This document shows, one piece after another, positions 1-19,869 of a stretch of 64,000 nucleotides of DNA. The notes beneath the pieces were generated by a model that saw only the letters and a list, made by a program, of their open reading frames with translations, was not told the origin of the DNA and searched no databases. Numbering within the stretch: position 1 is the first letter of the stretch; each line of letters begins with the position of its first letter. A program made the position numbers and the translations under genes. The DNA lies in NCBI GenBank assembly GCA_965262505.1, contig CBDHFM010000030.1, positions 3,237,722 through 3,301,721 on the forward strand. Direction: 5' to 3'. The stretch is from Vicinamibacterales bacterium. GTDB lineage: Bacteria; Acidobacteriota; Vicinamibacteria; Vicinamibacterales; UBA2999.

Positions 1-2352
<2,352 letters not shown>

Positions 2353-2463
2353 TACTCTCTTTGTCCGTGGATCTGAAGAGGTCTGCGGCTTCGCGTTGCG
2401 AGATGTGGTCGATTTGAACTACCGTTTGCAGGGTATTCAGTTGTCCGTTCTTTGACAGGATCC

Positions 2464-2655
2464 AAGGAACGCCGCCAAGGCGTTCCGGTAGAATTAAGGA
2501 ACACCGCCACGGGTGTTCCGGTAGATAGCGCGAACTATCTGTCGGAACAGGGAGGCGGGTTCCGAATCCAAGGAACGCCGCCACGGGTGTTCCGGTAGAT
2601 AGCGCGAACTATCTGTCGGAACAGGGAGGTGGGTTCCGACAGATAGTTCGGGACG
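2464..2655 (+). repeat. Hairpin-rich tandem repeat in the 23S-5S spacer: 74-nt unit x2 plus a partial unit
   Basis: Units at 2496-2569 and 2570-2643 are near-identical and are preceded by a partial unit at 2464-2495. Each starts with a GGAAC(A/G)CCGCC...GG(C/T)GTTCC hairpin. The last unit closes a perfect 18-bp stem, 2605-2622 with 2633-2650. Confidence 0.85.
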
Positions 2656-2721
2656 ATCGGCAAGGCGATGAGGCGTGGCTGAGAGCTGCGCTCCGCCCTG
2701 CCGGACCCCGGACAACCAATT

Positions 2722-2839
<118 letters not shown>

Positions 2840-2849
2840 TTGTTTTTAA

Positions 2850-2890
2850 AAAACCCCGATGTTCCAAATGGATCATCGGGGTTTTTCGTT
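2850..2890 (+). terminator. Rho-independent terminator after 5S, encoded by element DNA
   Basis: Stem aaaaccccgatg (2850-2861) pairs with catcggggtttt (2874-2885), followed by a T-rich tail. Confidence 0.8.
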
Positions 2891-2956
2891 TGTTTTAAGT
2901 AGTTTAGCGTCCTCTCTCTCTTGACGGTCCGCGTTGATTTACATCCGGTTTCGGAC

Positions 2957-2975
2957 TGGACAAAACTGGACAACA
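2957..2975 (+). promoter_or_regulatory. Tandem TGGACAA(A/C)A repeats, candidate arm-type recombinase sites (left arm)
   Basis: tggacaaaactggacaaca here matches tggacaaaacatggacaaca at 10545-10564 in the same orientation. Extra single copies occur at about 3025 and 3048. Confidence 0.5.
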
Positions 2976-2988
2976 ATACGCTTAACCG

Positions 2989-4311
2989 TTGCACATCTCT
3001 GAATGCGTGTGCGGGGGAGCGAAAATGGACAAAATGACAACTGGGTTTGGACAATCCAAACCCAATCGCGGGTCCCGTACTCCACAGCGCACGACCATTG
3101 CAAAAACTCTCCTCGGTGGGAAAGTTCGTCTGCTGCGTCACAACAGCAACCCGATGCTTTACGCGCGCGCGTATCTCCAAGGACGCTACGTCAAGATCCG
3201 CACGATGGAGACGACGGTCCGTGGAGCGTCGCAAGTTGCAGAAGAGTGGTATTTGGACTTACGCGAGCGCATCCGTCGTGGAGTGCAGCTTCACGAACCG
3301 CTTTTCGGAGATGTCATTCGTGACTTCCTCACCGATCCTACCGTCAAGGCAAGCGTCTCCACGGGACAGCACGAAAACTACGCAAAGAAGTGGAGCGTGC
3401 TGGAACCGTTCTTCACGGATGTGCGTGTCTCCCAAGTCACGCTGGATCGGTTAGAGGACATCCGCAACACGCGAGCAGCAGCGACGAACCGTTACGGGGA
3501 ACCGATCACCGCGAACACGATTGACAAAGACATCACGTTCATCCGACAGGTGCTCCGATGGGGACAGGAACGAAAAGGTCTCAAAATCGTCATTCCTCCC
3601 GCTCCGAAGCGCAAAGGACGATTTGCAGTCGTGAAGCAAGGTCGTCCGACACTCTCTCTGAAACAGTGGAGGCGGGTCACGCGAAAAGCTCTTACGGACG
3701 CGAGATCGACAGAGCAACGTCGCGACCGGCAAGAACGCGAGCGGACAAGGGGACGTAAAGTCGATCCTGAGAAAGCGTGGGAACTCTACTATTTCATTCT
3801 GATCGCGTGTGGGGGTGCACTGCGGACCGGGGAAGCATATTCGTTGCGCTGGATGGATTGCTCGGAAACCGTTCTCACCACTCCCGAAAACACCGATGAA
3901 GTCGCGATCCACGTCAAAGTGTTGGGAAAACACTCGCGGGGAGGACAACGTGAAGATGGCTGGGTGCTGATGGGTGGTGTGGTTGCGTTTGATCGGCTTC
4001 GCGCACGTCGAGAAGATGATCCTCCCGATGCGACGCTCTTCCGCTACAACCACGAAGCAGGGTTCCGCGAACTGTTGAAGTCGCTGAACCTTTACACCGA
4101 TCCCGCGTCTGGAATGACGCGCAACACGAAGTCCCTCCGTGTGACCGGGATCAATCTACGTTTGACGAAGAACCCAACCGTCTCATTGAACGATCTTCGA
4201 AAGTGGTGTCGTACGAGCATCGTCCAGATCCAGACCTTCTACGACCAGCTTCATCCGGAGACGAGTGCTGCGCGAGTTGCAGGAGGATCCACCGAGAAGA
4301 AGAAGACGTAG
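2989..4311 (+). CDS. Tyrosine recombinase / integrase (divergent); start uncertain (2989 TTG or ATG ~3024)
   Basis: The C-terminal half has box I ALRTGEAYSLRW, a beta-hairpin Lys region (HVKVLGKH), KSLRVTG in the HxxR position, then W...FYDQ (the Tyr). It sits directly next to attL. Confidence 0.85.
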   Translation: MHISECVCGGAKMDKMTTGFGQSKPNRGSRTPQRTTIAKTLLGGKVRLLRHNSNPMLYARAYLQGRYVKIRTMETTVRGASQVAEEWYLDLRERIRRGVQLHEPLFGDVIRDFLTDPTVKASVSTGQHENYAKKWSVLEPFFTDVRVSQVTLDRLEDIRNTRAAATNRYGEPITANTIDKDITFIRQVLRWGQERKGLKIVIPPAPKRKGRFAVVKQGRPTLSLKQWRRVTRKALTDARSTEQRRDRQERERTRGRKVDPEKAWELYYFILIACGGALRTGEAYSLRWMDCSETVLTTPENTDEVAIHVKVLGKHSRGGQREDGWVLMGGVVAFDRLRARREDDPPDATLFRYNHEAGFRELLKSLNLYTDPASGMTRNTKSLRVTGINLRLTKNPTVSLNDLRKWCRTSIVQIQTFYDQLHPETSAARVAGGSTEKKKT

Positions 4312-4360
4312 TTCCCTGTCCCACGGGCGGTCCGTGGGCGACAGAAGACCAAGGATAGGT

Positions 4361-4648
4361 ATGAACTGGATTGAAATAGTAGCTGTACTAGGGACTGGAC
4401 TAGGGATCGGCACAGTCCTGAGCAGGCTGCTAGATATCTGGCATGAGCGCATCAGACATGGACGTGAACACCAGAAGTGGCTACGGGATGAGCGCTTGTC
4501 AGCGTACGTTGATCTCACGAAGTATCTTTTGACGCTGGGCAGAAGCGGAGTTGATCAACGCGGGATTTCGTTCAAGGAGTTTGAGAATCCATTCGAGGGA
4601 TATGAGAGGTGGACCCTATCGGCTGGACAGCTGATCGACATCGTTAAG
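4361..4648 (+). pseudogene. Small membrane-protein ORF whose 3' end runs into an IS end
   Basis: MNWIEIVAVLGTGLGIGTVL is an N-terminal TM helix. The ORF continues into the presumed IS3-type left end (TGGAATCTTCTGTGTCAC... at 4649). Confidence 0.4.
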
Positions 4649-5088
4649 TGGAATCTTCTGTGTCACATTCCCGTCAAGATGAGAGGGGCAGAAGATGACG
4701 AAGAGGAAACGACGAAATCATTCACCAGTGTTTAAAGCCAAGGTCGCGTTGGCCGCAGTGCGAGGAGAGCGTACCTTGGCCGATCTCGCCGAGCAGTTCG
4801 AGGTGCACCCGAATCAGATCCAGGACTGGAAGAAGAAGCTGGTGGCGGATGCCGAGCATGTGTTCGGCGCCGGTGCGGTCGAGGCTGAGCATTCCGAGCA
4901 GGAGACCCAGCAGCTCCACGCCAAGATTGGTCAGCTGACGATGGAGAAGGATTTTTTGTCCAAAGCGCTCGGTCGAGACCGGTGAGCGAGCGCCGAGCGA
5001 TGATTCAAGCTGACCACCCGTTGACCGTCACCCGACGCTGCGAGCTGCTCGATGTGGCGCGGTCGACGGTGTATTACCACCCCACCGG
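4649..5088 (+). mobile_element. IS3-family remnant (left end, orfA, first ~35 codons of orfB), truncated by the next IS
   Basis: OrfA is an HTH protein (RRNHSPVFKAKVALAAVRGERTLADLAEQFEVHPNQIQDWKKKL). The orfB start (MIQADHPLTVTRRCELLDVARSTVYY) stops abruptly at 5088. Confidence 0.7.
4695..4985 (+). CDS. IS3-family transposase OrfA (HTH)
   Basis: 96-aa ORF with a typical IS3/IS911-type OrfA sequence and leucine-zipper tail. Confidence 0.85.
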   Translation: MTKRKRRNHSPVFKAKVALAAVRGERTLADLAEQFEVHPNQIQDWKKKLVADAEHVFGAGAVEAEHSEQETQQLHAKIGQLTMEKDFLSKALGRDR

Positions 5089-5285
5089 CGACGTCCCCCG
5101 GTCTTCAGTAGCACTTCGGTTTAGAGTCCGGCGGTGACTGTACTGCGTTCCGCGACCAGCCGCTTGGCGTACTGGGCCTCGGTGGACACCCAAAAGCGGC
5201 AATTAATCGACACTTCAAAACCGACAATTAGCTGACGGCGACCGAGACGTTGACGAGGGTCCGGGGCGTGTAGTCCCTGGCCCGG

Positions 5286-6860
5286 ATGAGCAACGTCTTG
5301 GACTACGAGAAGCAGCAGCAGATTCTGGCGCTGGGGCGTTTGGGCTGGCCGGTCAGCCCAAACGCCGAGGCCGCGGCCGTGCGCCGCGAAACCGCCGCCC
5401 GCTACTTGCGCGCGGCGGGGCTGTCGGTGCGCGGCCGCGGGCGCCCTGGCGAAGGGCCGGCAAAAGCGGCCATTTCCCGGGAGGTGTCCACCGACCCGCT
5501 GGCAAAACCGGCTATTTCCCCTGCGGGGGTGTCCACCGACTCTCCGCCGCCGCGGGCGCCCCAGGCGAGTGCGTGTGAGCCACATCGCGAGCGCATCGAA
5601 GCGGCCCTCACGCTCGGGCGCAATGCGATGGCGATTTGGCAGGACCTGGTGGAGGACGGCTTCACCGCCCGCTACGCCAGCGTCCGACGCTTCGTGCGCC
5701 ACCTGCGCGGCGCCGCGCCCGTGGAGGCGCGCGTCGTCATCACGACGGCGCCCGGGGAGGAAGCCCAGGTCGACTACGGCGACGGGCCGATGGTCCGCCA
5801 TCCGGCGACGGGCAAGTATCGACGTACGCGCCTCTTCGTCCTGACGCTCGGCTACTCCCGCAAAGCGGTCCGGCTGCTGGTCTGGCAATCGAGCGCGCAG
5901 GCCTGGGCCGAGCTGCACGAGCGGGCGTTTCGCCGCGTGGGCGGGACGCCGCGTCTCGTGGTCCTCGATAACCTCAAAGAGGGCGTGCTCACGCCCGACA
6001 TCTACGAGCCCGCGCTCAATCCGCTGTATCGCGATGTGCTCGCGCACTACGGCGTCGTGGGGCTCCCGTGTCGCGTGGGCGATCCCGATCGCAAGGGCAA
6101 GGTCGAATCGGGCATTGGCCACACGCAGAAGACGCCGCTCCACGGCCAGCGCTTCGAGACGCTCGAGCAGGCCCAGACCTATCTGGATCGCTGGGATGCG
6201 CACTGGGCGGATACGCGCATCCACGGCACCACGAAGCGGCAAGTGGCGGCGATGTTTGCGGAGGAGCGGCCGGCCTTACAGGTCTTGCCGGTCGAACCGT
6301 TTCGCTACTACCGCTTCGGCGTCCGCACGGTGCACCTCGATGGCTGCGTGGAAGTCGAGGCCGCATACTACTCGACGCCGCCCGGCTGGATCGGCCAGCG
6401 CGTCCAGGTGCAGTGGACGGATCTCCACGTCCGGCTGCTCCATCCAAAGACCGGCCAGCTGCTGCGCGAGCACATCCGGGCGCCGCGCGGGTGGCATCGC
6501 ATCGCCGAGACGGACCGGCCGGCGCGCACGCCCGCCTCCACGGTGGCGCTCCTCGCGCGGGCTCGCCACGCCGGCGCGCATCTCCACATGGTGTGTACCT
6601 ACATCCACGAGCACGAGGGCGCCGCCAGCGTGCGGCGTATCCTCGGCGTCCTCGCCCTGGCGAAAAAATACGGGCCGGCGGCGGTCGATGACGCCGCCAA
6701 GGCCGCGCTGGAGTTGCAGGTGCCGAGCTACCGCTTTGTGCGCCGCTATCTCGAACGGCACCCGTCGGCGCCGCTCACGCTCAAGCAAGTCGACCCACTC
6801 ATCCGCCAGCTCACCCTCTATCGCGATCTCATCGATCGCCAGACAGGAGACCCTGCATGA
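5286..6860 (+). CDS. istA: IS21-family transposase IstA
   Basis: 524 aa with an N-terminal HTH and a DDE core (EAQVDYGDG..., HGTTKRQV). Its stop overlaps the istB start. Confidence 0.92.
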   Translation: MSNVLDYEKQQQILALGRLGWPVSPNAEAAAVRRETAARYLRAAGLSVRGRGRPGEGPAKAAISREVSTDPLAKPAISPAGVSTDSPPPRAPQASACEPHRERIEAALTLGRNAMAIWQDLVEDGFTARYASVRRFVRHLRGAAPVEARVVITTAPGEEAQVDYGDGPMVRHPATGKYRRTRLFVLTLGYSRKAVRLLVWQSSAQAWAELHERAFRRVGGTPRLVVLDNLKEGVLTPDIYEPALNPLYRDVLAHYGVVGLPCRVGDPDRKGKVESGIGHTQKTPLHGQRFETLEQAQTYLDRWDAHWADTRIHGTTKRQVAAMFAEERPALQVLPVEPFRYYRFGVRTVHLDGCVEVEAAYYSTPPGWIGQRVQVQWTDLHVRLLHPKTGQLLREHIRAPRGWHRIAETDRPARTPASTVALLARARHAGAHLHMVCTYIHEHEGAASVRRILGVLALAKKYGPAAVDDAAKAALELQVPSYRFVRRYLERHPSAPLTLKQVDPLIRQLTLYRDLIDRQTGDPA

Positions 6861-7618
6861 ATCTCGTCGAACTCGATCACGCCCTCCGGAAGCTCCGTCT
6901 GTCCGGCATGGCCGATGTCCTCGAAGCGCGCTTACGGCAGGCCCAATCCGAGAAGCAGACCCCCATCGATCTCGTCTCGGCGCTCGTCAGCGATGAGCTG
7001 GTCCGGCGGCAGGACCGGCTCATCACCCGTCGCCTGCAGCAGGCCCGCTTCCGCGATGCCGACCGATCCCTCGACAGCTTTGACCTGGATTTCAACAAGA
7101 AGATGAATCGCGCGCTCATCCATGAGCTCGCGACGGGGCGCTTCATTCTCCAGCGCGAGGACGTGCTGTTTCTCGGTCCACCCGGCACCGGCAAGAGTCA
7201 TCTCGCCCAAGCGATGGGCCATGCGGCGATCCATCAGGGCCATCGCGTGCTCTATCGCGAAGCCCATACGCTGCTCGAGGAGCTGGCGGATGCCACGCTT
7301 GATGGCACCCGTAAGACCTTCTTCGCGGACCTGACCGCCGTCCCGCTGCTCATCATCGATGACCTCGGGATGCGCAAGCTCCCGCACACGGCGGCGGAGG
7401 ACCTGCTCGAGGTGATCATGCGCCGCTATGAGCGGGCGTCCACGCTCCTCACGTCGAACCGACCGGTGGATGATTGGGGCAAGCTCCTCGGCGATACGGC
7501 CGCCGTCACCGCCTTGCTCGATCGGTTGCTCCACCACGCCCACGTGCTCAAGTGCGGGCCCCGGAGCTGGCGGACGAAGATCCACACCGACTTGCGCATC
7601 GAGGACGCAACGAAGTAG
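6857..7618 (+). CDS. istB: IS21-family ATP-binding helper IstB
   Basis: Walker A GPPGTGKSHLA and Walker B LLIIDDLG, with a typical IstB N-terminus (LRLSGMADVLEARL). Confidence 0.93.
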   Translation: MNLVELDHALRKLRLSGMADVLEARLRQAQSEKQTPIDLVSALVSDELVRRQDRLITRRLQQARFRDADRSLDSFDLDFNKKMNRALIHELATGRFILQREDVLFLGPPGTGKSHLAQAMGHAAIHQGHRVLYREAHTLLEELADATLDGTRKTFFADLTAVPLLIIDDLGMRKLPHTAAEDLLEVIMRRYERASTLLTSNRPVDDWGKLLGDTAAVTALLDRLLHHAHVLKCGPRSWRTKIHTDLRIEDATK

Positions 7619-7683
7619 AACTCACCTGTCTCGGTCAGCCGGCGGAAATTGCCGGTTTTGCCCTGTCGATAAATTGCCGGTTT

Positions 7684-8499
7684 TCAGCCGTCCACCGAGG
7701 ACTGGGCGGGCGTGAGCCCGCCCAGTCCCTTCTTCGGCCGCTCCTCGTTGTACTCGCGTCGCCAGGCCTCGACGAGGACCTGGGTATGGACCAGACTCGT
7801 GAACCAGTGCTCGTTGAGGCACTCGTCGCGGAACCGGCCGTTGAACGATTCGATATAGGCGTTCTGATTCGGCTTGCCCGGCTCGATCAGGCGCAACGTG
7901 ACGCCGTGCGTATGGGCCCATGTCAGCATGGCGCGCCCGCAGAACTCCTTCCCGTTGTCGGTGCGCAAGATACGCGGCAGGCCGCGCTTGAGCGCGAGTT
8001 GATCGAGCACGCGGGTGACCGGCAGCCCACCGAACGCGCGGGCCGGCACGATGGCCACCGCTTCGGTGGTCGCGTCATCGACGACGGTCAGGCACTTCAC
8101 CACCCGTCCCTCGGCCGTGCGGTCGAAGACGAAGTCGGCAGACCAGACCTCGTTCGGCGCCTGGGGGCGTACCAGGGGCTGGCGGTCCGCCACCGGGATC
8201 TTCTTGCGTCGCCGCCGACGTACCTGCAGCCTAGCCTCGGTATACAGGCGCTCCACCCGCTTGTGGTTGACCCGTGTTCCCGCCTGCCGCAGCTTGAGGT
8301 AGATCATCCCGGCACCGTAGCGACGGTGCCGGTGCGCTAAGGTCACGATGCGGGCTCGCAACGCCGCGTTAGTATCCGGCGCCGGGGTGTATCGCAGCGA
8401 CGAGGCACTCATGTGCACCAGCGCGAGCGCGCGCCGCTCGCTCACCCCCTGCGCGGTCATATCCCGCACCAGCACCCGTCGGGCTGGGGCGGTCACCAC
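7684..8499 (-). pseudogene. IS3-A OrfB (DDE/rve) with its C-terminus displaced by the IS21 insertion
   Basis: Identical to the OrfB at 53675-54523 until ...GLGGLTPAQ, where the IS21 junction replaces the last ~17 codons. Confidence 0.85.
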
Positions 8500-8756
8500 T
8501 TTTTTCGCAACGCATCGCGCGTCACCTCGTTGTCCAGCACGGACTCGGCCAGCAGCTTCTTCAGCCGCGTATTCTCGGCAATCAGCTCCTTCAGGCGTTT
8601 CGCGTCCGAGACGGTCATCCCGCCGAACTTATTCCGCCAGAGGTAGTAACTGGCCTCCGAGAACCCGTGCCGGCGGCACAGGTCCTTCACCGGCAGGCCC
8701 GCTTCGGACTCCCGCAGGAACCCGATGATCTGCGCCTCGCTGAATCGTTGCTTCAC
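8493..8756 (-). CDS. IS3-A OrfA (HTH)
   Basis: 87 aa, identical to 54517-54780. An A AAA AAG slippery motif lies at the orfA/orfB overlap. Confidence 0.9.
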
Positions 8757-8831
8757 GTCCGATCTCCCTTCTCGTGAGCTCGGACTCTAAACCCGGGTGC
8801 TACTCAATTCGGGGGGGACGTCGCATCATCA

Positions 8832-9446
8832 TCAACCTCCGTTGGTACGGGCAGCGCGGGTCCAGTTTTGCTGCTTCCAGGTCCAGTGAGGCTGAGCGAG
8901 CAGTCTTATCCATTCTCGTTGCTCTATTCCGCTTGGACGGAGATACCCGATGTGTTTCGCAAGGCTCTCTTGCGTTTCCGGGATCACGCGCTGTCCGTCA
9001 TTGAAGATGTGGAGGTTCACGGACTGAAGCGGCGGTCGTGCGTTGATCTCGTCAACGAGCAGCGCGAGGTTCTCTGGCATCGCGATGATCCGGCGTGTTT
9101 TTTTGTCGAAGATCGCGCGTCGGCGGATCGTCGTCATTCTCGGTAGGCATCCCCAACCATGCGCGTGGAATGTGTCGTTCTTCGTGGCGGGCAAGAGCAG
9201 CATTCTGACTGCTTTCGCTACGGGGTACCGTCTCTGGTTGTTTCGCGAGAATGCGACATCGCACCTCGAGGTCACGGCTTCACAAGACTCTCGCATCCAT
9301 CGCTGGACTATCTGGTCAGTAGCGAACTCCGAGGGCTTGTGCGGGTTGAGTGAGAACCAGAACCAGTTGCAGTCCTGGTCGGCTTCGTGTCGTTCTTTCA
9401 ACCAATTCAACCATCCGTTGTAGATTTGCTTTTTGTTCGTTTCCAT
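8832..9446 (-). CDS. Hypothetical protein (element cargo)
   Basis: Open frame with GAGGTG 5 nt upstream of the ATG at 9446. Lower GC than its surroundings. No motif recognised. An AT-rich divergent promoter region lies at 9530-9670. Confidence 0.55.
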   Translation of the reverse strand: METNKKQIYNGWLNWLKERHEADQDCNWFWFSLNPHKPSEFATDQIVQRWMRESCEAVTSRCDVAFSRNNQRRYPVAKAVRMLLLPATKNDTFHAHGWGCLPRMTTIRRRAIFDKKTRRIIAMPENLALLVDEINARPPLQSVNLHIFNDGQRVIPETQESLAKHIGYLRPSGIEQREWIRLLAQPHWTWKQQNWTRAARTNGG

Positions 9447-9670
9447 CTGTACACCTCGGACATCATCAGGTGATGCTGGTTTCTTCCGGACGCGGTCGTG
9501 GTCGGACTCAGGGTCGCTCTCCACACATCTACTTAGATGTCGTGTATTACGTGGTCAATGGCGGATAATAAATGCAGTAACACATTGAAAATAAAGCATC
9601 TATAGGTTTCATTGGCATAGCAATGAAATACATTGACAGACCATAAACAGTATGTCATTATATATCTACA

Positions 9671-10390
9671 ATGACATACGAGAGCGAAGCGAGGAATGGT
9701 ACGACGGTAGAGAAGCGCATCCGGAGGGTCTACGGGTACGCGCGAGTCAGCACTGACAGACAGGTACAACAGGGCTCATCGCTCGGGGATCAGGAACAGC
9801 GTATCAGTGGGTACGCTCAGAGCATCGGCGTCTTCGTAGACGAAATGTTCGTGGAGGCAGGCGTATCAGGCGGCAAGTCGCTGGAGAAGCGTCCCAGAGG
9901 CGCAGTACTGATGAAAGCAGCACAGGCGGGCGACATCATCATCGCAACGAAGCTGGACAGAATGTTTCGCTCAGCGTCGGACGCGCTGGTCGTTGTGGAG
10001 CAGTTGGCAAAGCGGGGTATCCATCTGCACCTGATAGATGTTGGAGGAGATGTGACAGGAAACGGGGTTGCGAAGCTGGTATTTTCCATCCTCGCGGCGG
10101 TTGCGGAAATGGAGAAGAGTCGCATTAGTGAACGCGTCCGGGACGTGAAGAATCATCTCCGCGATGCTGGTCGTTTCACTGGTGGCAAGACTCCAGTCGG
10201 GTACCGCGTGACGCGAGACAAGCGGCTCGTGCGCAACGACAACTGGGACCAGGCAACCAAAGCGATGCGTGAATGGAAGGCGTCGGGGAAATCCTACGCT
10301 GAGATTGCAGTACAGGTCAGGCAGGACTACGGGATCTCGATCTCGATCAGCACTTGTTTCCGGACTCTCAGCAGTTCCAGAAACGCGTAG
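9671..10390 (+). CDS. Serine recombinase (resolvase/invertase family)
   Basis: The N-terminal catalytic motif YGYARVSTDRQ is followed by DRMFRS and a C-terminal helical region. Confidence 0.9.
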   Translation: MTYESEARNGTTVEKRIRRVYGYARVSTDRQVQQGSSLGDQEQRISGYAQSIGVFVDEMFVEAGVSGGKSLEKRPRGAVLMKAAQAGDIIIATKLDRMFRSASDALVVVEQLAKRGIHLHLIDVGGDVTGNGVAKLVFSILAAVAEMEKSRISERVRDVKNHLRDAGRFTGGKTPVGYRVTRDKRLVRNDNWDQATKAMREWKASGKSYAEIAVQVRQDYGISISISTCFRTLSSSRNA

Positions 10391-10544
10391 GCTGGCTCAG
10401 GGTAGGGAATAGCTCGTGAAGCTTCCCGTTCGTCGCTCTGGGACGCTCCTAGGGTTTCTGGTGGGTGGATCTGGACGTGTCCAAACAGGGTGAATCTTGA
10501 CAAAGCTCGTAAGCGACCGTAAATAGGTCGCTTAGCGTTATTTA

Positions 10545-10564
10545 TGGACAAAACATGGACAACA
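10545..10564 (+). promoter_or_regulatory. Tandem TGGACAA(A/C)A repeats, candidate arm-type sites (right arm)
   Basis: tggacaaaacatggacaaca matches 2957-2975. The adjacent palindrome aagcgacc-N7-ggtcgctt (10511-10533) contains taggtcgct, a 9-nt match to the att core. Confidence 0.5.
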
Positions 10565-10608
10565 CTGCCTTAAATGTCATATTTTAAACGTTATTTTTAT
10601 TTTATATA

Positions 10609-10626
10609 GAGAGTAGGTCGCTGCCG
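10609..10626. repeat. Right copy of the 18-bp direct repeat (attR core; orphan 5S 3'-end fragment)
   Basis: GAGAGTAGGTCGCTGCCG is identical to 2819-2836. No 5S body lies upstream of it; AT-rich element DNA does. Confidence 0.85.
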
Positions 10627-10643
10627 TGATTAATTTTTCAATG

Positions 10644-10676
10644 AGCCCGCGTCATCGCACGATGAGCGGGCTTTTC
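10644..10676 (+). terminator. Rho-independent terminator, presumed native rrn operon terminator
   Basis: Long stem agcccgcgtcatcg / cgatga-gcgggct with one bulge, followed by TTTT. Confidence 0.8.
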
Positions 10677-10866
10677 TACGTACGGTCACCGATGGACCTC
10701 TCAATCTCGCACGAAGTCCTACCCCGCGGGACGAGGCCGCTGCGCCTTCCGCGGTGGGCAGGCGCTGCGCGATGCTGTGGCGGACACAGAGCCCGTCGTG
10801 ACGGATCGCGACGGGCTCTTCTTGCCTCTGGCGTCGAGCCTCCGCGTAGAATGATCCGGCGCGATC

Positions 10867-11598
10867 ATGCCAGACGAGAACACTCGCACCGATGCGCGGT
10901 ATGTCGAGCGCGACACCGAGCGAACGATCCGCCATCGGAACAAGGGGTACTACCGCGTTCTGCACTGGCCGATCTGGATCTTCGTGTTCTTCATCGCGCC
11001 GGGGCCGCTGACGTTCGATCTCTTCGAGCGCGGCTTCGACCGGCGCACACTCGCCTGGTTGGTCGTGGTGCTGTGTGCCACAGCGGTGGCGGGGTTGCGG
11101 GGCCGCCTGCCGGGATGCGAGCCCAAGCCTTACATCATCCGGTTCACCGAGGATCGGCCGAACCCGCTGTACCGGCGCGTCTGTTACACGGCGGCCTGGG
11201 GCGAAGTCGTTGCGTTTGCCGCCCTCAACACGGCGGGCCTGGCCTACGCGGTGGCGACCGGCGAGTGGCAGCTGAAGCAGATGTACGACCTCGCCTATTT
11301 TCCGATTGCCGGCAGCCTGTGGATGCTCGGCGCGCTGGGACATCTTCCCCGCGTCAAGGCCTCGACGCAGGGAGAGGGTCACGAGCGGCGGTACTTCTAT
11401 GGGTCGGTCTGGGCCGTGACGATCGCCCAGCCGGTGCTCTGGACGATGTGGAAGGTCCTGCCGGCGACCCGCGCGGGCGATATAGCGAAGCTGGCGATCT
11501 TCGTCGGCATCCTCACCTACGTCGGCCGCCTGTCGCGCCTCGGACTCCTGCCGCGCACCCGGCCGATCGTGCCAGGGGAACTGGCGGTTTCTGATTGA
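10867..11598 (+). CDS. Integral membrane protein, function unknown
   Basis: 243 aa with several hydrophobic helices (WPIWIFVFFIAPG, LAWLVVVLCATAVAGL, and others) and strong GC3 bias. The long antisense ORF is rejected. Confidence 0.7.
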   Translation: MPDENTRTDARYVERDTERTIRHRNKGYYRVLHWPIWIFVFFIAPGPLTFDLFERGFDRRTLAWLVVVLCATAVAGLRGRLPGCEPKPYIIRFTEDRPNPLYRRVCYTAAWGEVVAFAALNTAGLAYAVATGEWQLKQMYDLAYFPIAGSLWMLGALGHLPRVKASTQGEGHERRYFYGSVWAVTIAQPVLWTMWKVLPATRAGDIAKLAIFVGILTYVGRLSRLGLLPRTRPIVPGELAVSD

Positions 11599-12410
11599 CT
11601 CACGCGCACCATTCCCCACTGTTGGCCAAGAAACCAGGTAGCGAAGGCTACGCCGGCTGGGACGAGTACGCCCCGTTCTACGACTGGGAGAACGCGCGGA
11701 CGCTCGGCCGCCGCGACGTGCCCTTCTGGCGCGCCGCTGCTCTGGCGGCTGGCGGCCCGGTGCTCGAGCTCGGGTGCGGCACGGGCCGCCTCGCCGTGCC
11801 CCTCGGTCGTGCCGGCGTGCGGCTGGTCGGCATCGATCGCTCGTATCCGATGCTGGCCTTGGCGCGGCGGCGGGTGGCGCGCGCACGCCTCACGAGACAG
11901 GTGGGGTTGGTCCGTGGCGACATCCGGGCCGCGCCGTTTCCAGATGCCGCTCTTGCGATGGCGATGGCTCCCTACGGCGTGCTGCAGTCGCTCCTGCGCG
12001 AACGGGACCTGGCCGCCACCCTGGACTCGGTGCGCCGCGTGCTCCGTCACGGGGCGGCCTTCGGCGTCGAACTCGTGGCGGACCTGCCCTCCTGGGGCGA
12101 GTATCAGAAGCGCGTCAGCCTCAAGGGGTGGAGGCATCGTCGCGGAGGCGCGCACATCACGCTCGTGGAAACCGTACGGCAGGATCGTGCGAGGCACCTC
12201 ACGATCTTCGACCAGGAGTTCACCGAACGACGCGGGCATCAGCGCCGCTCGCGGCGCTTTGCGCTCACGTTCAGGACGCTTTCGGTGCCCCAGATGGCCC
12301 GCCGGCTCGAGAAGGCCGGCTTCGAGATCACCGCACTCCTCGGCGACTATCGCGGCGGTCCGTGGCATTCCGGGGCCGAGGCCTGGATCATCCTCGCCCG
12401 TCGACGATAG
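11595..12410 (+). CDS. Class I SAM-dependent methyltransferase
   Basis: Motif I is VLELGCGTGRLAVPL, followed by an acidic loop VGIDRS. Confidence 0.8.
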   Translation: MTHAHHSPLLAKKPGSEGYAGWDEYAPFYDWENARTLGRRDVPFWRAAALAAGGPVLELGCGTGRLAVPLGRAGVRLVGIDRSYPMLALARRRVARARLTRQVGLVRGDIRAAPFPDAALAMAMAPYGVLQSLLRERDLAATLDSVRRVLRHGAAFGVELVADLPSWGEYQKRVSLKGWRHRRGGAHITLVETVRQDRARHLTIFDQEFTERRGHQRRSRRFALTFRTLSVPQMARRLEKAGFEITALLGDYRGGPWHSGAEAWIILARRR

Positions 12411-12483
12411 ATCGAGCGGTCCGACGACGCAGGCGATCTGGTAGAATCGTGCTTACTTTCCCCAATTTATCTGGAGTTTTCGC

Positions 12484-13233
12484 ATGTCAGGCCATTCCAA
12501 GTGGGCCACGATCAAGCATAAAAAGGGTGCCGCCGACGCCAAACGCGGAAAGGTTTTCACGCGCATCATCAAGGAATTGACGGTCGCGGCGCGCCACGGC
12601 GGCGGCGATCCCGAGATGAATCCCCGCCTGCGCACGGTTGTCGCGGACGCGAAAGCGAACAACATGCCTCGCGAGAACATCGATCGTGCGATTCGCCGCG
12701 GGACGGGCGAAGAGCCCGGCGTCACGTACGACGAAATCACCTACGAGGGCTACGGCCCCGGGGGCGTCGCGCTACTAATCGAAACGCTCACCGACAACAA
12801 GAACCGCACGGTCGGGGAGATTCGCCATCTCCTCGACAAACACGCAGGAAACCTGGCTGCCGAGAACAGCGTGGCCTGGATGTTCTCCCGCAAAGGCCAG
12901 ATCTTCGTCGAAAAAGGCAAGATCGACGAGGACAAGCTTCTGTCGGCGGTGCTCGACGCGGGGGCCGACGACATGAATGACGACGAGGGCGGCTGGGAAA
13001 TCGTGTGCGCGCCCGAGCGCTTCGAGGCCGTGCGCGACGCCGTCAAGGCGCTTGGCGTCGAGCCCGGAAGCGCGGCGGTCGCAATGGTCCCGCAGAGCTA
13101 CATCAAGCTCGTGGGCCGGGAAGCGCAGCAGATGCTGAAGCTGATGGAGGCCATCGAGGATAACGACGACGTCCAGCACGCCTGGGCCAACTTCGACGTG
13201 GAGGAGAAGGAGATCGAGGCCTCTCTCGCGTGA
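12484..13233 (+). CDS. yebC: YebC/PmpR-family transcriptional regulator
   Basis: N-terminus MSGHSKWATIKHKKGAADAKRGKVFTRIIKE is diagnostic. It sits upstream of ruvC as in many bacteria. Confidence 0.95.
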   Translation: MSGHSKWATIKHKKGAADAKRGKVFTRIIKELTVAARHGGGDPEMNPRLRTVVADAKANNMPRENIDRAIRRGTGEEPGVTYDEITYEGYGPGGVALLIETLTDNKNRTVGEIRHLLDKHAGNLAAENSVAWMFSRKGQIFVEKGKIDEDKLLSAVLDAGADDMNDDEGGWEIVCAPERFEAVRDAVKALGVEPGSAAVAMVPQSYIKLVGREAQQMLKLMEAIEDNDDVQHAWANFDVEEKEIEASLA

Positions 13234-13802
13234 GGATTTTCGGCATCGATCCTGGCTCCGAGCGCACCGGCTACGGCTGCCTGGAGGCGGACGGCGGCGT
13301 GATGCGCCTCGTGACCTGCGGTGCCGTCAGCGCCCTCGCGGGGGATGCCTTTCCCGAGCGCCTGGCGCGCATTCATCGGGAGCTCTCGGCGCTGCTGATC
13401 AGTTGCGGCCCGGATTGCGTCGCCATTGAAAGCCTGTTTCACGCGGTCAACGTCCGCAGCGCGCTCAAGCTCGCTCACGCGCGCGGCGTGGCGATGCTTG
13501 CGGCGGTCGAAGCAGGTTGTCCGGTCGTGGAGTACACGCCGGCGGAGATCAAGCGTGCCGTCGTCGGCTACGGCCGCGCTGAAAAGCACCAGGTGCAGCA
13601 GATGATCAAGCTGTTGCTGGGCCTCGATCAGCCGCCGTCGCCGCACGACGCCGCCGACGCCCTGGCCGTCGCGATCTGCCATCTGCATTCGGTGCCCGGT
13701 TATGCGGGAGCGGACCTGAAGGCCCCGGGCTATGAGGATGCCGTATCGCGCCAGCCGCGGCCGAGGACCTGGCGGCAGTACCGTCCTCCGACTACCGGAT
13801 GA
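13230..13802 (+). CDS. ruvC: Holliday junction resolvase RuvC
   Basis: MRIFGIDPGSERTGYG..., EYTPAEIKRAVVGYGRAEKHQV and HDAADALAVAICH. Confidence 0.93.
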   Translation: MRIFGIDPGSERTGYGCLEADGGVMRLVTCGAVSALAGDAFPERLARIHRELSALLISCGPDCVAIESLFHAVNVRSALKLAHARGVAMLAAVEAGCPVVEYTPAEIKRAVVGYGRAEKHQVQQMIKLLLGLDQPPSPHDAADALAVAICHLHSVPGYAGADLKAPGYEDAVSRQPRPRTWRQYRPPTTG

Positions 13803-14401
13803 TTGCGTTCCTTCGCGGACGGGTCCTCGACAAACAGCCAAATGTGCTCATCGTGGACGTCCAGGGCGTGGGCTATGAAGTGCATGTGCCACTGTCCACG
13901 TACTACGACGTTGGCGACGCAGGAGCCGACGTCGCGCTTCGCATCTACACGCACGTTCGCGAAGAGGCGTTCCACCTCTACGGATTCCTGACGACGATCG
14001 AGCAGCAACTGTTCGAACGGCTGATTACGATTAGCGGGATCGGACCCAAGCTGGCCATCGCCGTGCTGTCGGGCATCGAGCCGCGTGACCTTATCGGCGC
14101 GGTGCAGCGGGGCGATATCGCGCGACTGACGGGCATTCCTGGCGTTGGGCGCAAGACGGCCGAGCGGATGATCCTCGAGTTGAAAGATCGCCTGGCACAG
14201 TTGGACGTGACCTCGGGCGCAGGAGAACCCGTGTCCGCGGCTCCAGGCGAACGGCTTCGCGACGATGTCCTCTCGGCGCTTCAGAACCTGGGCTATCATC
14301 GGCCGCTGGCTGAGAAGGCTGTCGACTCCATGCTGTCATCCACCAGCGAGCCAAGCTTCGAGCAGGCGCTCAAGGCCACTCTGCGGGAACTGATGCGATA
14401 A
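13799..14401 (+). CDS. ruvA: Holliday junction branch migration protein RuvA
   Basis: MIAFLRGRVL..., HhH motifs ISGIGPKLA and IPGVGRKTAERM. Confidence 0.93.
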   Translation: MIAFLRGRVLDKQPNVLIVDVQGVGYEVHVPLSTYYDVGDAGADVALRIYTHVREEAFHLYGFLTTIEQQLFERLITISGIGPKLAIAVLSGIEPRDLIGAVQRGDIARLTGIPGVGRKTAERMILELKDRLAQLDVTSGAGEPVSAAPGERLRDDVLSALQNLGYHRPLAEKAVDSMLSSTSEPSFEQALKATLRELMR

Positions 14402-14437
14402 CACGGGTCAAAGTCCTTTACCCTTTGACTGTGGCCT

Positions 14438-15454
14438 ATGACTGACCGATTGGTGGCCGGCGGACGCGTCGAGGAAGACGCCCAGTACGAAGCCGGGCTG
14501 CGCCCGCGCTCGCTCAATGAGTACATCGGACAAGATCGCGTTCGCGACAATCTCGAAGTCTCGATCGCGGCGGCGCGCGGCCGAGTCGAAGCGCTCGATC
14601 ACGTGCTGCTCTACGGACCGCCGGGACTGGGAAAAACGACCCTCGCGTACGTCATCGGCAACGAGATGGGTGTGTCGGTGCGCGCCACAGCAGGGCCGGC
14701 CATCGAGAAGCAAGGCGATCTGGCGGCAATGCTGACGAACCTGCAGGAGCACGAAGTGCTGTTCATTGACGAGATTCACCGGTTACCGCCGGCGATCGAG
14801 GAGATCCTGTACCCGGCCATGGAGGACTACGAGCTCGACATTGTCATCGGGCAAGGTCCGAGCGCGCGGTCCGTCAAGGTGCCCGTGCAACGCTTCACCC
14901 TGATCGGCGCCACGACCCGCGCGGGCCTTCTGACCTCTCCGCTGCGCTCCCGCTTCGGCATCGTGCACCGCCTGGATTTTTATGAGGCCGCTGACGTCGA
15001 AGAGATCGTCCGCCGTTCCGCGAGGATCCTTGGGGTGGTGATCGACGACGAGGCGAGGAAGGAGGTAGGGCAACGGTCACGCGGGACGCCCCGGATCGCC
15101 AACCGCCTGCTACGACGCGTCCGGGACTACGCGCAGGTGCGTGCGGACGGCCACATTACGGCCGACGTCGCGCGCGCGGCGATGGAACTGCTCGAGGTGG
15201 ATGATCTGGGCTTCGACGAAGTCGATCGCAAACTGCTGCGGACGATCATCGAAAAGTTCAGCGGCGGGCCGGTCGGCGTCAACAGCTTGGCCGCGGCCGT
15301 CAGTGAGGAGAAGGATGCGATCGAGGATATCTACGAGCCGTTCCTGATTCAGGCGGGCTTTCTCGACCGGACGCCGCGCGGACGCATCGCCACCGCACGG
15401 GCGTACGAATACTTTGGGCTCACCGCTCCCCGGAAGGATTCTCAGCTGTGGTAA
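14438..15454 (+). CDS. ruvB: Holliday junction DNA helicase RuvB
   Basis: [12 protein letters not shown], Walker [22 protein letters not shown] and [16 protein letters not shown]. Confidence 0.95.
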
Positions 15455-16473
15455 CCACTCCGCCGGCACGCCGCGCTCACGCGTGCATCTCCAGCATCGC
15501 CGGCTACGTGCCGCCGCGGGTGCTCACCAATGCCGACCTCGAGAAACTGGTCGACACCAGCGACGAATGGATCATGCAGCGTGTGGGCATCCGGGAGCGG
15601 CACGTCGTCGACCCTGGAGTGGCCACCTCCGATCTCGCAACGGAAGCATCGCTGTCGGCGATCCAGAAGGCCGGCCTGACACCTGACGATATCGACTTCA
15701 TCATTGTCGCGACCACGACACCTGACACGTTGTTTCCCAGCACCGCCTGCGTCTTGCAGGCGAAAATCGGCGCTTCCCATGCCTGGGGCTACGACCTTGT
15801 CGCCGCCTGCTCGGGGTTTACGTACGCGCTGACGACGGCGTCGCAGATCGTGGCGGCCGGCGGTAGCCGGCACGCACTGGTAGTCGGTGCGGACGTGATG
15901 TCCAGCATCATCGACTACACCGACCGCACGACCTGCGTGTTGTTCGGCGATGGGGCCGGCGCCGTGGTTGTCGAGCCCAGCGATGACGACTCGATCGGCA
16001 TCATCGATTTCGAACATTACGTGGACGGCACTGGCGGTCCCGCGCTCTGCATGCCTGCGGGAGGCAGTCGGATGCCTGCGTCCCTCGAGACCGTGGAACA
16101 GCGCCTGCACTACGTGAAGCAGGATGGCCAGGCGGTGTTCAAGTTCGCGGTCCGCAACATGGAAGAGGTCTGCCGCCGGATTCTTGAGCGTAACCGCCTC
16201 TCGGCGGAACAGGTCGATCTGTTCGTTCCGCATCAGGCGAGCAGCCGCATCATCATAGCGGCGGCTGAGAAGCTCGGCCTGCCGCGTGAAAAGGTCGTGA
16301 TCAATATCGATCGGCTGGGAAACACCACGGCCGGCACGATTCCGCTGGCACTCGACGAAGCCGTCGAAGCGGGCCGTCTCAAGCGCGGTGATCTCGTCCT
16401 GCTGGCATCGGTTGGGGCCGGCTTCACGGTAGGTGGCGTGCTCCTGACGTGGGGACTCACGCACACGACGTAG
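15448..16473 (+). CDS. fabH: 3-oxoacyl-ACP synthase III (KAS III)
   Basis: Active-site region [10 protein letters not shown], then VPHQAS and GNTTAGTIP. The GTG start overlaps the ruvB stop. Confidence 0.9.
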
Positions 16474-16518
16474 GTCGAAGTCGAAGGTCACGGGTCGAAG
16501 GTCAAGAACCACCGGCTG

Positions 16519-17544
16519 GTGGTCGTCGCGGCCGGACACTGTTCTGACACAGAACCGATACGACCGGTTCCAGAATTGACGCGCACATCCAGGATTCTCA
16601 TTCCAGCCGACGTCGACAACGCGACGCTGACGGTTGCCGGTCACGAGGTGCGCCTGACGAACCTGCAGAAGCCGTTCTGGCCGGAACTCGGAATCACGAA
16701 GGGCACGCTGCTCCAGTACTATTCGGATGTGGGGCCCGTGTTGCTTCCACACATCCGCGACCGCGCGATGGTAATGAAGCGCTATCCCCAAGGCGCGACA
16801 GGTCCATTCTTCTTCATGAAGCGGGCGCCGACGCCGCGTCCAGACTGGATCCGGACGTGCGCGATCGAGCACGAGTCTGGCAACGCGATCGATTTTCCCG
16901 TCATCAACGACCTGCCGTCGCTGCTCTGGGTCATCAATCTCGGGTGCATCGATTTGAATCAGTGGTACGCGAAATGCGACGATGTCGATCGGCCGGACTT
17001 CGTGCACTTCGACCTTGACCCTGGCGAGGGCGCGACGTTCGAGCAGGTGCGTGAGTGCGCGCTGATCGTCCGGGATGCGCTCGAGACGCTCGGCATGAAG
17101 CCGCTCGTTAAGACAAGCGGATCCAGGGGCATGCATGTCTACGTCCCGATCGTTCGCGGGCCGGTGCAGAAGGCTGTCTGGATGTTCGCCAAGGCGCTCG
17201 CGGTGGAGCTGGTGTCGCGCCATCCGGCCTTGATGACCTCCGAGTACCGCCTGGCGAAGCGGCCAAGGGGACGCGTCCTCGTCGACTACAACCAGAACAG
17301 GTGGGGAAGCACGCTCGCCAGCGTCTATTCCGTGCGTCCGCGACCGCTGGCCACGGTGTCGACACCGCTGACATGGAGCGAAGTGGCCGGTCGCGCGAGA
17401 ACCGAGGCCTTCCGGATCGACAATGTCCCGGCACGCGTGCGGGCGCGGGGTGATCTGTGGAAGCCGCTGCTGCTCGCGCGTGGTCGCACCGACCTCGATA
17501 AATTCCTTCAGGGCAAACGGCGGGGGTCCAAGGTCAGATCATGA
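16519..17544 (+). CDS. LigD-type primase-polymerase domain protein (NHEJ); start uncertain
   Basis: LTNLQKPFWPE..., KRYPQG..., FFFMKRAP, VHFDLDPG and KTSGSRGMHVYVPI are typical of the LigD Pol domain. Confidence 0.8.
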   Translation: MVVAAGHCSDTEPIRPVPELTRTSRILIPADVDNATLTVAGHEVRLTNLQKPFWPELGITKGTLLQYYSDVGPVLLPHIRDRAMVMKRYPQGATGPFFFMKRAPTPRPDWIRTCAIEHESGNAIDFPVINDLPSLLWVINLGCIDLNQWYAKCDDVDRPDFVHFDLDPGEGATFEQVRECALIVRDALETLGMKPLVKTSGSRGMHVYVPIVRGPVQKAVWMFAKALAVELVSRHPALMTSEYRLAKRPRGRVLVDYNQNRWGSTLASVYSVRPRPLATVSTPLTWSEVAGRARTEAFRIDNVPARVRARGDLWKPLLLARGRTDLDKFLQGKRRGSKVRS

Positions 17545-18743
17545 TGGCCCGCGACTTCGATTTCGATCTTCCCGATGAGCTGATTGCGCAGGAGCCGCCG
17601 ACCATGAGGGGCGATTCGCGCCTGCTCGTGTTGCATCGAGACAGCGGACAGGTCGAGCACACAGTCTTTTCGCACCTTGCCGACTATCTGCGCTGCGGCG
17701 ATCTTCTGGTTCTGAACAATACGAAAGTGTTTCCGGCGCGCCTGCTGGGGCATCGCCTACCAGGTGGTGGGGCTGTCGAATGCCTGTTGATTCGCCAGCT
17801 CCCGACTCCACAACATGGGGCGCGAAACGCCCTGCCCGCCACGGGCAGCGATGGCGCCACGAGGGCGCGATCGGAGACCGGGAAACTGGGCGTTCAGGAG
17901 CCGGGCGTTGAGAAATTGGACGCTGAGGAGCCGATAGTTCAGGGGTGTGGCGCTAGGAGTTCGGTCTGGTGGGAAGCCCTCATGCATCCTGGCCAAAGGC
18001 TGAGGCCGGGAACCCGGGTCGTATTCAAGGGCGCCGGTGTGCGGCTGCACGGCGAGGTCCTCGCCAGACACTTTCAGGGCCGCCGGACGATACGGCTGTG
18101 GGCCGACGGAAGCGTCGACGTCACCCGCGCCATCGACCGCATCGGCCACGTGCCGCTGCCGCCCTACATCAAGCGCGAGGACCGCCTGTCCGATCGCGAT
18201 CGTTATCAGACGATCTATGCCCGCGAGCGCGGGTCGATCGCCGCGCCGACAGCCGGCCTGCACTTCACTGAGGGCGTGCTCGACAGCCTGGCGTCGCTGG
18301 GCGTCGAACGCTCGGAACTCACACTCCACGTCGGCTATGGCACGTTCAAGCCGATTCGCAGCGAACAGGTCGAAGATCACGTCGTTGACGCGGAGACATG
18401 CGTTGTGCCGGCGGATACCGCCGCGGCGCTCACGCGGGCGCGGAGCGAGGGGCGCCGAATCATTGCCGTCGGGACGACCACCGTGCGCGCGCTGGAGTCG
18501 TTGACGGTTCAGGAAGACGGCCGCATCAAGCCATCGACGGCGGACGCGCAGCTGTTCATCCGGCCGGGCCACGAGTTCCGTATTGGCGATGGCCTCATCA
18601 CGAATTTCCATCTGCCGCGTTCGTCGCTCCTCCTGCTCGTGGCTGCATTCGCGGGCCGCGAACGGATCCTCCAGACGTACCGCGAGGCGGTCGCTCAGGG
18701 GTACCGCTTCTACAGCTACGGTGATGCGATGGCGATCCTGTAA
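17541..18743 (+). CDS. queA: S-adenosylmethionine:tRNA ribosyltransferase-isomerase, carrying an extra ~50-aa insert
   Basis: FDFDLPDELIAQEP, LLVLNNTKVFPARL, PLPPYIKR, AAPTAGLHFT, VGTTTVRALES and NFHLPRSSLL. It is 400 aa, longer than the roughly 340-350 aa I recall as usual. Confidence 0.9.
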   Translation: MMARDFDFDLPDELIAQEPPTMRGDSRLLVLHRDSGQVEHTVFSHLADYLRCGDLLVLNNTKVFPARLLGHRLPGGGAVECLLIRQLPTPQHGARNALPATGSDGATRARSETGKLGVQEPGVEKLDAEEPIVQGCGARSSVWWEALMHPGQRLRPGTRVVFKGAGVRLHGEVLARHFQGRRTIRLWADGSVDVTRAIDRIGHVPLPPYIKREDRLSDRDRYQTIYARERGSIAAPTAGLHFTEGVLDSLASLGVERSELTLHVGYGTFKPIRSEQVEDHVVDAETCVVPADTAAALTRARSEGRRIIAVGTTTVRALESLTVQEDGRIKPSTADAQLFIRPGHEFRIGDGLITNFHLPRSSLLLLVAAFAGRERILQTYREAVAQGYRFYSYGDAMAIL

Positions 18744-18746
18744 CGT

Positions 18747-19700: not shown

Positions 19701-19774
19701 GACTCCGGCCTCGCGCGCAGGCCCCGAGCTAATCGAGGCCCGAGGCCCGGGCCCTGTTAGAATTACAGGTTCGG

Positions 19775-19851: not shown

Positions 19852-19869
19852 ACATCGATTCCAAGAGGC

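Follow-up and report, generated by a model that had tools for sequence, protein, structure and literature searches.

Site-specific integrases are catalogued largely by their target, and tools such as Islander inspect only tRNA and tmRNA genes, so that islands in the 5S rRNA gene (rrf) would be missed or filed as 'intergenic'. The closest described systems are the islands and prophages of tRNA and tmRNA 3′ parts (P4-like; Williams 2002 classification, cited in PMC12540744), in which, as in the locus described here, a tyrosine integrase adjoins a stable-RNA gene, direct repeats derive from the 3′ end of that gene, the RNA gene stays intact and relatives carry empty sites. A further non-coding RNA (ncRNA) target was reported in 2025, when integration of phage phiEf11 into ffs (4.5S RNA) was described as a novel ncRNA bacterial attachment site (attB); the known ncRNA targets named there are tRNA/tmRNA and csRNA, and 5S is not listed (PMC12540744). 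The TIGER/Islander resource sorts sites only as tRNA/tmRNA, coding or intergenic (PMC12424338). Here we analyze a stretch of 64,000 nucleotides (nt) from a Vicinamibacterales bacterium (Acidobacteriota; GenBank assembly GCA_965262505.1, contig CBDHFM010000030.1, positions 3,237,722 to 3,301,721 of the forward strand), hereafter the window, to which coordinates refer unless another contig is named. It contains a 7,790-bp island that is very probably a site-specific integrative element with the 3′ end of the 5S rRNA gene as its attachment site.

Relative to the tRNA and tmRNA islands, the target here is rrf, and the exchange appears to fall at the very last nucleotides of the gene, not in an anticodon or T loop. 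The element seems to restore no part of the gene and replaces the operon terminator instead, the partial gene copy at its right end (attR) is probably element-derived, and its integrase is not recognized by the Pfam Phage_integrase model. The two kinds of island are nevertheless connected by a sister clade of the present integrase, which seems to target the anticodon loop of tRNA-Leu(GAG). With phiEf11 the locus shares the use of a non-tRNA structural RNA gene as attB, whereas phiEf11 uses another RNA, is a temperate phage, encodes a canonical integrase and has a 27-nt identity block.

Mobile elements specialized on 5S genes are known from eukaryotes. The fungal Starship Voyager, also moved by a tyrosine recombinase, inserts into the 5S gene 20 bp from its 5′ end, an event predicted to inactivate the copy (PMC9156397), and the Dada-5S transposons of fish target 5S rDNA (PMC8869645). 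As far as tested, their recombinase families are unrelated to the present one; Voyager, moreover, hits one of many dispersed 5S copies, whereas here the 5S gene, probably present in very few copies, remains intact. The ICEHptfs3/4 elements of Helicobacter pylori use a short sequence motif that is present at many sites. A favored site of these elements (TnPZ) lies downstream of a 5S copy in the variable plasticity zone (PMC12443045), so that they, too, are integrative elements often found beside 5S, but no 5S-derived attachment (att) site is described for them. A full-text literature search of incomplete coverage, in which TIGER data were not included, returned no prokaryotic report of 5S as attB. 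The supposition of an earlier note on this DNA, made from the sequence alone, that 5S is not a described attB class therefore stands for prokaryotes within that search and fails for eukaryotes, whose elements are known to target it.

The window contains exactly two copies of the 18-mer GAGAGTAGGTCGCTGCCG (2819-2836 and 10609-10626), each on the + strand; two matches were found in 0 of 100 shuffles (mean 0.01 occurrences per shuffle). The first copy lies within the last 21 nt of the 5S rRNA gene, which is intact (2723-2839, +; Rfam RF00001, 100.6 bits, full model 1-120) and belongs to an rrn operon represented upstream by the 3′ four-fifths of a 23S rRNA gene (1-2352, +; RF02541, 2335 bits). 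Ahead of the second copy the DNA is AT-rich and contains no 5S body. With a single mismatch (G2837 versus T10627) the repeat extends to 23 bp and ends in a GATT that is identical in both copies; past it the two are only partly similar and T-rich. Count, shuffles and Rfam thus bear out the two repeat positions and their unequal surroundings as the earlier note gave them, along with its remark on imperfect similarity beyond the 18-mer.

Occupied and empty alleles of this site coexist within the species. Contigs were sought by exact match to the first host protein after the island (encoded at 10867-11598), which yielded four long-read contigs from one study. In L026 and L027, both of the same species as the window, the island is absent: window positions 1-2847 are joined straight to 10609-21598 with flanks 99.8-99.9% identical, the 7,790 bp between the repeats are missing, and 5S runs directly into the downstream terminator and genes. 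The island is present in three assemblies, namely the window, L025 and L028. While L028 is 100% identical to the window across 12.4 kb, the L025 island carries a complete IS3 insertion sequence (IS; 805 nt more, at window position 5088/5089) and 225 extra nt near 8820; the island therefore has structural variants within the population. The attR core of L025 also shows one substitution (GTATGTC). The junctions recur in three independent assemblies of the species and, diverged, in other lineages, and are hence no assembly artifact; together with the family-wide 5S adjacency described below, the precise empty alleles uphold the proposed attL-int...attR layout at the rrf 3′ end.

The empty site reads ...GCTGCCGgGATTAATTTTT, in full GAGAGTAGGTCGCTGCCG-G-GATT-AATTTTTCAATGAGCCCGC. 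Its existence had been foreseen with one base wrong, since G and not T follows GCTGCCG. A metagenome scan with the predicted empty site, AGAGTAGGTCRCTGCCGTGATT, returned two contigs only, identical to the related locus L001 (see below) and both attR sites; because the pattern carried the element's T, it was incapable of finding the true attB.

Comparison of the alleles locates the exchange. The sequence from 5S through GATT is the same in occupied and empty alleles (window 2723-2841 is identical to L026 and L027). The base after GCTGCCG is G in attB and likewise in attL, and T in attR, and the sequence after GATT is AATTTTTCAATG... (host) in attB and attR and GTTTTTAAAAAACCCC... (element) in attL. 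Because attB and attL read G and attR reads T, T10627 should come from the attachment site of the element (attP) and the switch should lie within GATT, at 2838-2841 of the attL core (2819-2841, +; 18-bp identity, G2837, GATT) and at 10628-10631 of the attR core (10609-10631, +; 5S-like 18-mer, T10627, GATT). The exchange thus maps, on the evidence of these alleles, to a GATT that straddles the 5S 3′ terminus and comprises the last two 5S nt and two spacer nt. With the exchange at GATT, the 5S gene would be untouched and no part of it rebuilt by the element. A crossover inside the gene with an element-supplied replacement 3′ segment does not fit, given that at most the last two 5S nt can be element-derived. 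Likewise, because T10627 is attP-derived, the 22-bp 5S-like block at attR would be element-borne and not a displaced host 3′ end. We also considered an exchange inside the 18-mer with a recipient 5S ending in T. This is unlikely, because it needs a rare single-nucleotide polymorphism at exactly that base and because the same T is found at attR in two other lineages, whereas every 5S seen reads G.

The gene just inside the left repeat encodes a protein of 428 amino acids (aa; 3025-4311, +), which we take to be a divergent tyrosine integrase on the strength of its predicted fold and motifs. Its identity as a tyrosine recombinase, already assumed in the earlier note, is supported by fold and by PHROG_1; its start is most likely the ATG at 3025, not position 2989 as first given. 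PHROG_1 ('integrase') matches the protein with E 1.5e-12, plasmid genes 26% identical to it carry the annotation tyrosine-type recombinase, and some of its about 80 metagenome homologues are labeled 'integrase' at source. Four residues are invariant in a 39-sequence alignment, R279 (ALRxGEA), K314 (GKHS), R384 (KSLRxTG) and Y418 (FYDQ), and they follow the motif order of tyrosine recombinases; within the catalytic signature the first His position is occupied by Lys, and the second His/Trp (W406 or R408) is assigned from motif order only. In the AlphaFold (AF2) model built on the alignment of 39 homologues (predicted local distance difference test (pLDDT) score 86.4, predicted template modeling (pTM) score 0.70), an N-terminal beta-sheet domain is followed by two helical domains. 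Foldseek retrieved 44 PDB matches at E ≤ 1e-3 with this model, all of them tyrosine recombinases, with Tn1549 Int, Tre/Cre, lambda Int and XerH as the best (probability 1.0, E ~2e-7), and the two-domain fold of core-binding and catalytic domains seen in Cre, lambda Int and Xer is found in the model as well. A profile search of PDB sequences with the integrase gave nothing meaningful. No relatives were found in IMG/VR or among GenBank phages, and megablast of the 5S-int region against plasmids returned only irrelevant 5S-like fragments in Peribacillus.

The best structural matches, the heterobivalent recombinases lambda Int and Tn916/Tn1549 Int, share with this protein the N-terminal beta-sheet domain placed before the core-binding and catalytic domains, although sequence identity is only 12-16%. 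Canonical tyrosine recombinases have a His three residues before the second catalytic Arg; here a Lys stands in that place (KSLR), and Trp/Arg-Thr-Ser seems to occupy the last His position. A second likeness to these recombinases is that short direct repeats in both arms of the element resemble arm-type sites. The window contains six copies of the motif TGGACAAMA, where 0.23 would be expected; five of them are located within the ends of the island and share the + strand. They form tandem repeats TGGACAAAA / TGGACAACA at 2957-2975 (+; the putative P′ arm) and again at 10545-10564 (+; the putative P arm), the latter separated from the attR core by a 44-nt AT-rich spacer, and a third TGGACAAAA copy (3026-3034) overlaps the integrase ATG. 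Tandems equivalent to 2957-2975 are present in the related loci L001, L019, L023 and L029, and the repeat spacing on the attR side is as in the window in L001, L019 and L029. L029 has the same architecture with TGGAATAA at both ends in place of TGGACAAMA; the arm repeats therefore co-vary within an element, which is what arm-type integrase sites would show. Taken together, the N-terminal beta domain and the arm repeats suggest a lambda/Tn916-like heterobivalent integrase that would bind its arms.

A perfect 9-bp inverted repeat, TAAGCGACC...GGTCGCTTA, lies at 10510-10534, just past the resolvase gene described below. Its arms contain the att-core heptamer GGTCGCT, 75 nt upstream of attR, and L001 has no conserved counterpart. 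The repeat may act as a terminator or as an additional core-type site, or it may be due to chance.

The association with 5S extends across the integrase family. All homologues of 48-100% identity that we examined (ten contig lineages) lie immediately 3′ of a 5S gene, as expected if the integrase is tied to rrf. When GTDB species genomes were scanned with the integrase alignment, 16 loci were retrieved, nearly all of them in Acidobacteriota (Vicinamibacteria and relatives); the closest, L001, encodes an integrase with 77% identity to that of the window and sits 3′ of 5S. Directly 3′ of 5S are also P0014 (90% identity; L023), P0002 (87%; L024), P0005 (74%; L019-L022), P0019 (64%; L033), P0026 (56%; L030/L031) and P0031 (48%; L032), and the contig carrying P0023 (59%; L029) starts inside the 5S 3′ end. 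L001 copies the whole layout, from the 23S end through 5S, terminator and int to, 6.9 kb on, AGAGTAGGTCACTGCCG-T-GATTTTTT and a terminator, after which comes a homologue of the first host gene of the window; its core has A for the window's G in both copies, in agreement with its own 5S. L019 and L021 carry an identical integrase in islands of 7.4 and 3.6 kb, and both end in GTAGGTCGCTGCC-T-GGATT and a terminator, followed by host genes. The attR sites found in L001 and L019/L021 thus share the layout and the extra T, and direct repeats from the RNA gene 3′ end with int adjacent bound the element in the window, L001 and L019/L021. In L024, a second, N-terminally truncated integrase copy (12866-13660 of that contig) lies 1.7 kb downstream of the complete one, which suggests a tandem or rearranged pair of elements at one 5S site. 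Many of the homologue contigs end at rRNA.

In a neighbor-joining tree all 5S-associated integrases form one clade. Its sister clade (37-44% identity; L002-L016 loci) adjoins tRNA-Leu(GAG) on the opposite strand, either as a complete gene or as a 3′ half broken just past the anticodon loop; in both configurations tandem TTGACAACA-type repeats come next and then int. This arrangement points to anticodon-loop integration in the sister clade, with int on the tRNA 5′-end side. Stable-RNA genes thus seem to be the targets of the integrase family as a whole, within which the 5S clade appears to represent a target switch. One family member, together with a bacterial-type tRNA-Leu half-site, is found in L013 (CAVSAA010000001.1), which is binned as a Bathyarchaeota archaeon; the archaeal assignment is probably mis-binning, and it may alternatively reflect a transfer.

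Directly after 5S, an island-borne hairpin with a U tract (2849-2886, +; ΔG -24.7 kcal/mol, z -6.2) replaces the native rrn terminator, and an equivalent hairpin follows 5S in every related element. The native terminator (10643-10673, +; ΔG -21.4 kcal/mol, z -3.6, U tract) now lies 7.8 kb from 5S, to the right of the second repeat and ahead of host genes including yebC-ruvCAB, where a strong hairpin terminator had been noted before; it directly follows 5S in the empty sites L026 and L027. By this reading of the sequence, the host locus would lose its terminator and the element's own hairpin would take over directly after 5S.

We propose that the 428-aa recombinase, presumed to be catalytically active, recombines a circular attP with attB, the latter being the last about 21 nt of rrf and the first spacer bases. 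The predicted attP would run from an AT-rich P arm with two TGGACAAMA sites through GAGAGTAGGTCGCTGCCG-T-GATT and the element terminator to a P′ arm with two to three TGGACAAMA sites and then int, and its junction would read ...TTTTATATAGAGAGTAGGTCGCTGCCGTGATTGTTTTTAAAAAACCCC. Integration would displace the operon's terminator to attR and put the element hairpin in its place; this hairpin would in addition protect int against read-through from rrn. The element's 5S-like 22-mer at attR would probably serve as a core-type binding site that mimics the target. A plasmid-like circular phase may involve the H-x-H...Y protein described below (possibly as Rep) and a small second recombinase (possibly for multimer resolution).

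The content of the island agrees with the island-like character attributed to it earlier, with two recombinase genes, nested IS elements and a GC content of 53-54% in its non-IS DNA against 66% in the host flank. Beside int lies an open reading frame (ORF) for 124 aa with a hydrophobic N-terminus (4361-4735, +); its homologues follow int in L023 and L024, and it has no family match in Pfam or PHROGs. It is followed by an IS3-family orfA remnant (4695-4985, +; PF01527), whose orfB is deleted in the window and present in L025, by an IS21-family element with a GC content of 67% (5286-7618, +; istA 5286-6860, istB 6857-7618; PF00665, PF22483, PF01695) and by a second IS3-family element (7684-8756, -; orfB 7684-8499, orfA 8493-8756; rve, rve_3 and HTH_21; also in the gene table of L025). 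Toward the right end a small serine recombinase of the resolvase/invertase type is encoded (9671-10390, +; 239 aa; PF00239, E 1.4e-30). Its counterpart in L001 is 41% identical and in the opposite orientation, and in L019, L021, L029 and L032 a tyrosine recombinase of ~210 aa replaces it.

Between the second IS3-family element and the serine recombinase gene lies the gene for a 204-aa protein (8832-9446, -) with homologues in L001 (5379-6113), L019 (9845-10570), L024 and L029 (3579-4331). It belongs to a small, fast-evolving family of 204-250 aa that is always located near the attR end of these elements, for which a word-based search found one relative and then six, and a full HMMER search 15 representatives among 1.8 billion. 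D23, R73, H94-x-H96, Y168 and E175 are invariant in 17 diverse sequences of this family. No Pfam, PHROG or PDB profile matched the 204-aa protein; its AF2 model has a pLDDT of 65, and Foldseek gave no significant match, the second-ranked being an IS200/IS605-type transposase (E 0.27). As the order of H-x-H and then Y resembles that of HUH rolling-circle Reps, we hypothesize that it may be a new HUH-type Rep. Apart from int, the elements have in common a small second recombinase and the H-x-H...Y protein, both near attR, and other elements carry HNH and Mrr-type nuclease genes or Sel1-repeat genes as cargo. No virion or lysis domains were found in any ORF, which speaks against a prophage, and no type IV secretion genes, coupling protein or relaxase were detected, which speaks against a conjugative or mobilizable element. 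We infer an integrative element of small size (about 4 kb), perhaps plasmid-like, to which IS have added about 3.9 kb in the window.

Several points weigh against a site-specific integrative element driven by the 428-aa protein. Neither Pfam at E ≤ 0.01 nor NCBIfam at E ≤ 1 matches this protein, and PF00589 is among the Pfam models that fail to detect it. Genes for an excisionase, for transfer or with a proven role in replication were not found in the element. The GATT at the switch point (4 bp) is shorter than the overlap usual for tyrosine recombinases, which is 6-8 bp; accordingly, either overlap heterology is tolerated or the cleavage positions differ slightly from the mapping. Integrases of the Tn916/Tn1549 type do tolerate overlap heterology, and by analogy such tolerance would explain the 4-bp identity here. 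No excised circle or attP junction was seen directly: contigs encoding the exact integrase of the window comprised only integrated copies and no small circular contig. L029, a Logan contig of 6,319 nt, carries the same 30-mer, GAGTAGGTCGCTGCCGGGGATTCAATCAAA, at 1-30 and 6290-6319, which corresponds to the 5S 3′ end plus 11 nt and shows no T mismatch; such ends are compatible with an excised circle and also with a de Bruijn unitig delimited on both sides by a perfect 30-bp att repeat. Finally, all three lineages with an identifiable gene past attR share the rrn-to-yebC neighborhood, and the integrase (77% identity) has diverged to much the same degree as the host gene beside it (about 70%), so that long vertical co-descent is possible on the deeper branches.

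These last observations are also what would be expected of an element that is real but immobile, an old, vertically inherited and IS-ridden remnant that became fixed behind the rrn operon in Vicinamibacteria-like genomes and whose empty alleles arose by homologous recombination with island-free relatives, not by site-specific excision. The three IS elements in the window copy and the missing circular form fit this explanation as well, and we regard it as improbable, though the most serious of the alternatives. Against it, the int ORF is intact with motifs strongly conserved over 39 sequences, and att cores and arm repeats, likewise intact, vary in concert at both ends of each element. Alleles with and without the island occur side by side in flanks of 99.9% identity, the empty site being base-perfect, and cargo turns over fast behind an identical integrase. 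For the integrative element, the base-perfect presence/absence polymorphism within one species, the intact int and att sites and the rapid cargo turnover argue for current or recent mobility, and the element is presumed to be competent for excision at present.

It is very unlikely that the serine recombinase (9671-10390), and not the 428-aa protein, inserted the element. The former has a clear Resolvase catalytic domain with weak similarity to the Ccr and XisF excision recombinases, lies close to attR and has a homologue in L001. At 239 aa, however, it has no large C-terminal domain such as serine integrases possess; in L001 its homologue points the other way, and it is swapped for the ~210-aa tyrosine recombinase in the four loci named above while the 5S target and the 428-aa integrase stay constant. 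The 22-bp core homology and the arm repeats are, moreover, the signature of a tyrosine integrase. That the second 18-mer is a relic of a partly deleted 5S/rrn copy, or that the junctions are chimeric, with the genes between brought in by IS activity, can be dismissed almost entirely: rRNA regions do break and mis-join assemblies, as the many homologue contigs ending at rRNA illustrate, and IS elements fill half of the island, but there is no additional 5S sequence ahead of 10609, three independent long-read assemblies agree on the junctions and two others show the exact empty site, the whole layout is repeated in diverged lineages, and IS target duplications are not 22 bp with a fixed mismatch.

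Outside the element, the spacer between 23S and 5S (2353-2722) is, at 370 nt, unusually long. Two tandem repeats lie in it, one of 74 nt (1.9 copies, 2496-2639) and one of 32 nt, which vary slightly among conspecific contigs. The first host gene past the island (10867-11598, +; 243 aa), a homologue of which follows attR in L001 and L019, is succeeded by a methyltransferase gene and yebC-ruvCAB. Farther downstream (19775-21171 and beyond), 140 nt separate a tRNA-Met(CAT) gene (19775-19851) from a canonical integrase of the P4 type (Arm-DNA-bind_3 / Phage_int_M / Phage_integrase according to the gene tables of L025-L027), behind which lies a further Phage_integrase ORF. This looks like the start of another island, of the conventional tRNA-associated kind; no further copy of the tRNA-Met(CAT) 3′ end was found within the window, and TCCCATAGATTCC is repeated at about 19870 and 19944.

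The 5S-associated element is well supported by comparative evidence and involves no new principle. There is roughly an even chance that it represents the first described prokaryotic integrase clade dedicated to 5S, with rrf as a new attB class beside tRNA, tmRNA, csRNA and ffs, and with an unusual geometry in which exchange takes place at the last nucleotides, a 5S-mimicking core with a fixed mismatch acts as bait and the element's own terminator ends the rrn operon. Should the H-x-H...Y protein prove to be a rolling-circle Rep, these would be small integrative plasmids of Acidobacteriota parked at the end of the rrn operon. An integrase that recognizes the conserved 5S 3′ end without damaging the gene could serve as a 'safe-harbor' tool for phyla that are hard to manipulate, for example Acidobacteriota, and adjacency to rRNA may explain why these integrase genes are frequently positioned at contig ends. 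A 5S-specific clade would extend the preference of integrases for slowly evolving stable-RNA genes to the ribosomal operon itself, and its sister relationship to a tRNA-Leu anticodon-loop clade would provide a case of natural target switching within one integrase family.

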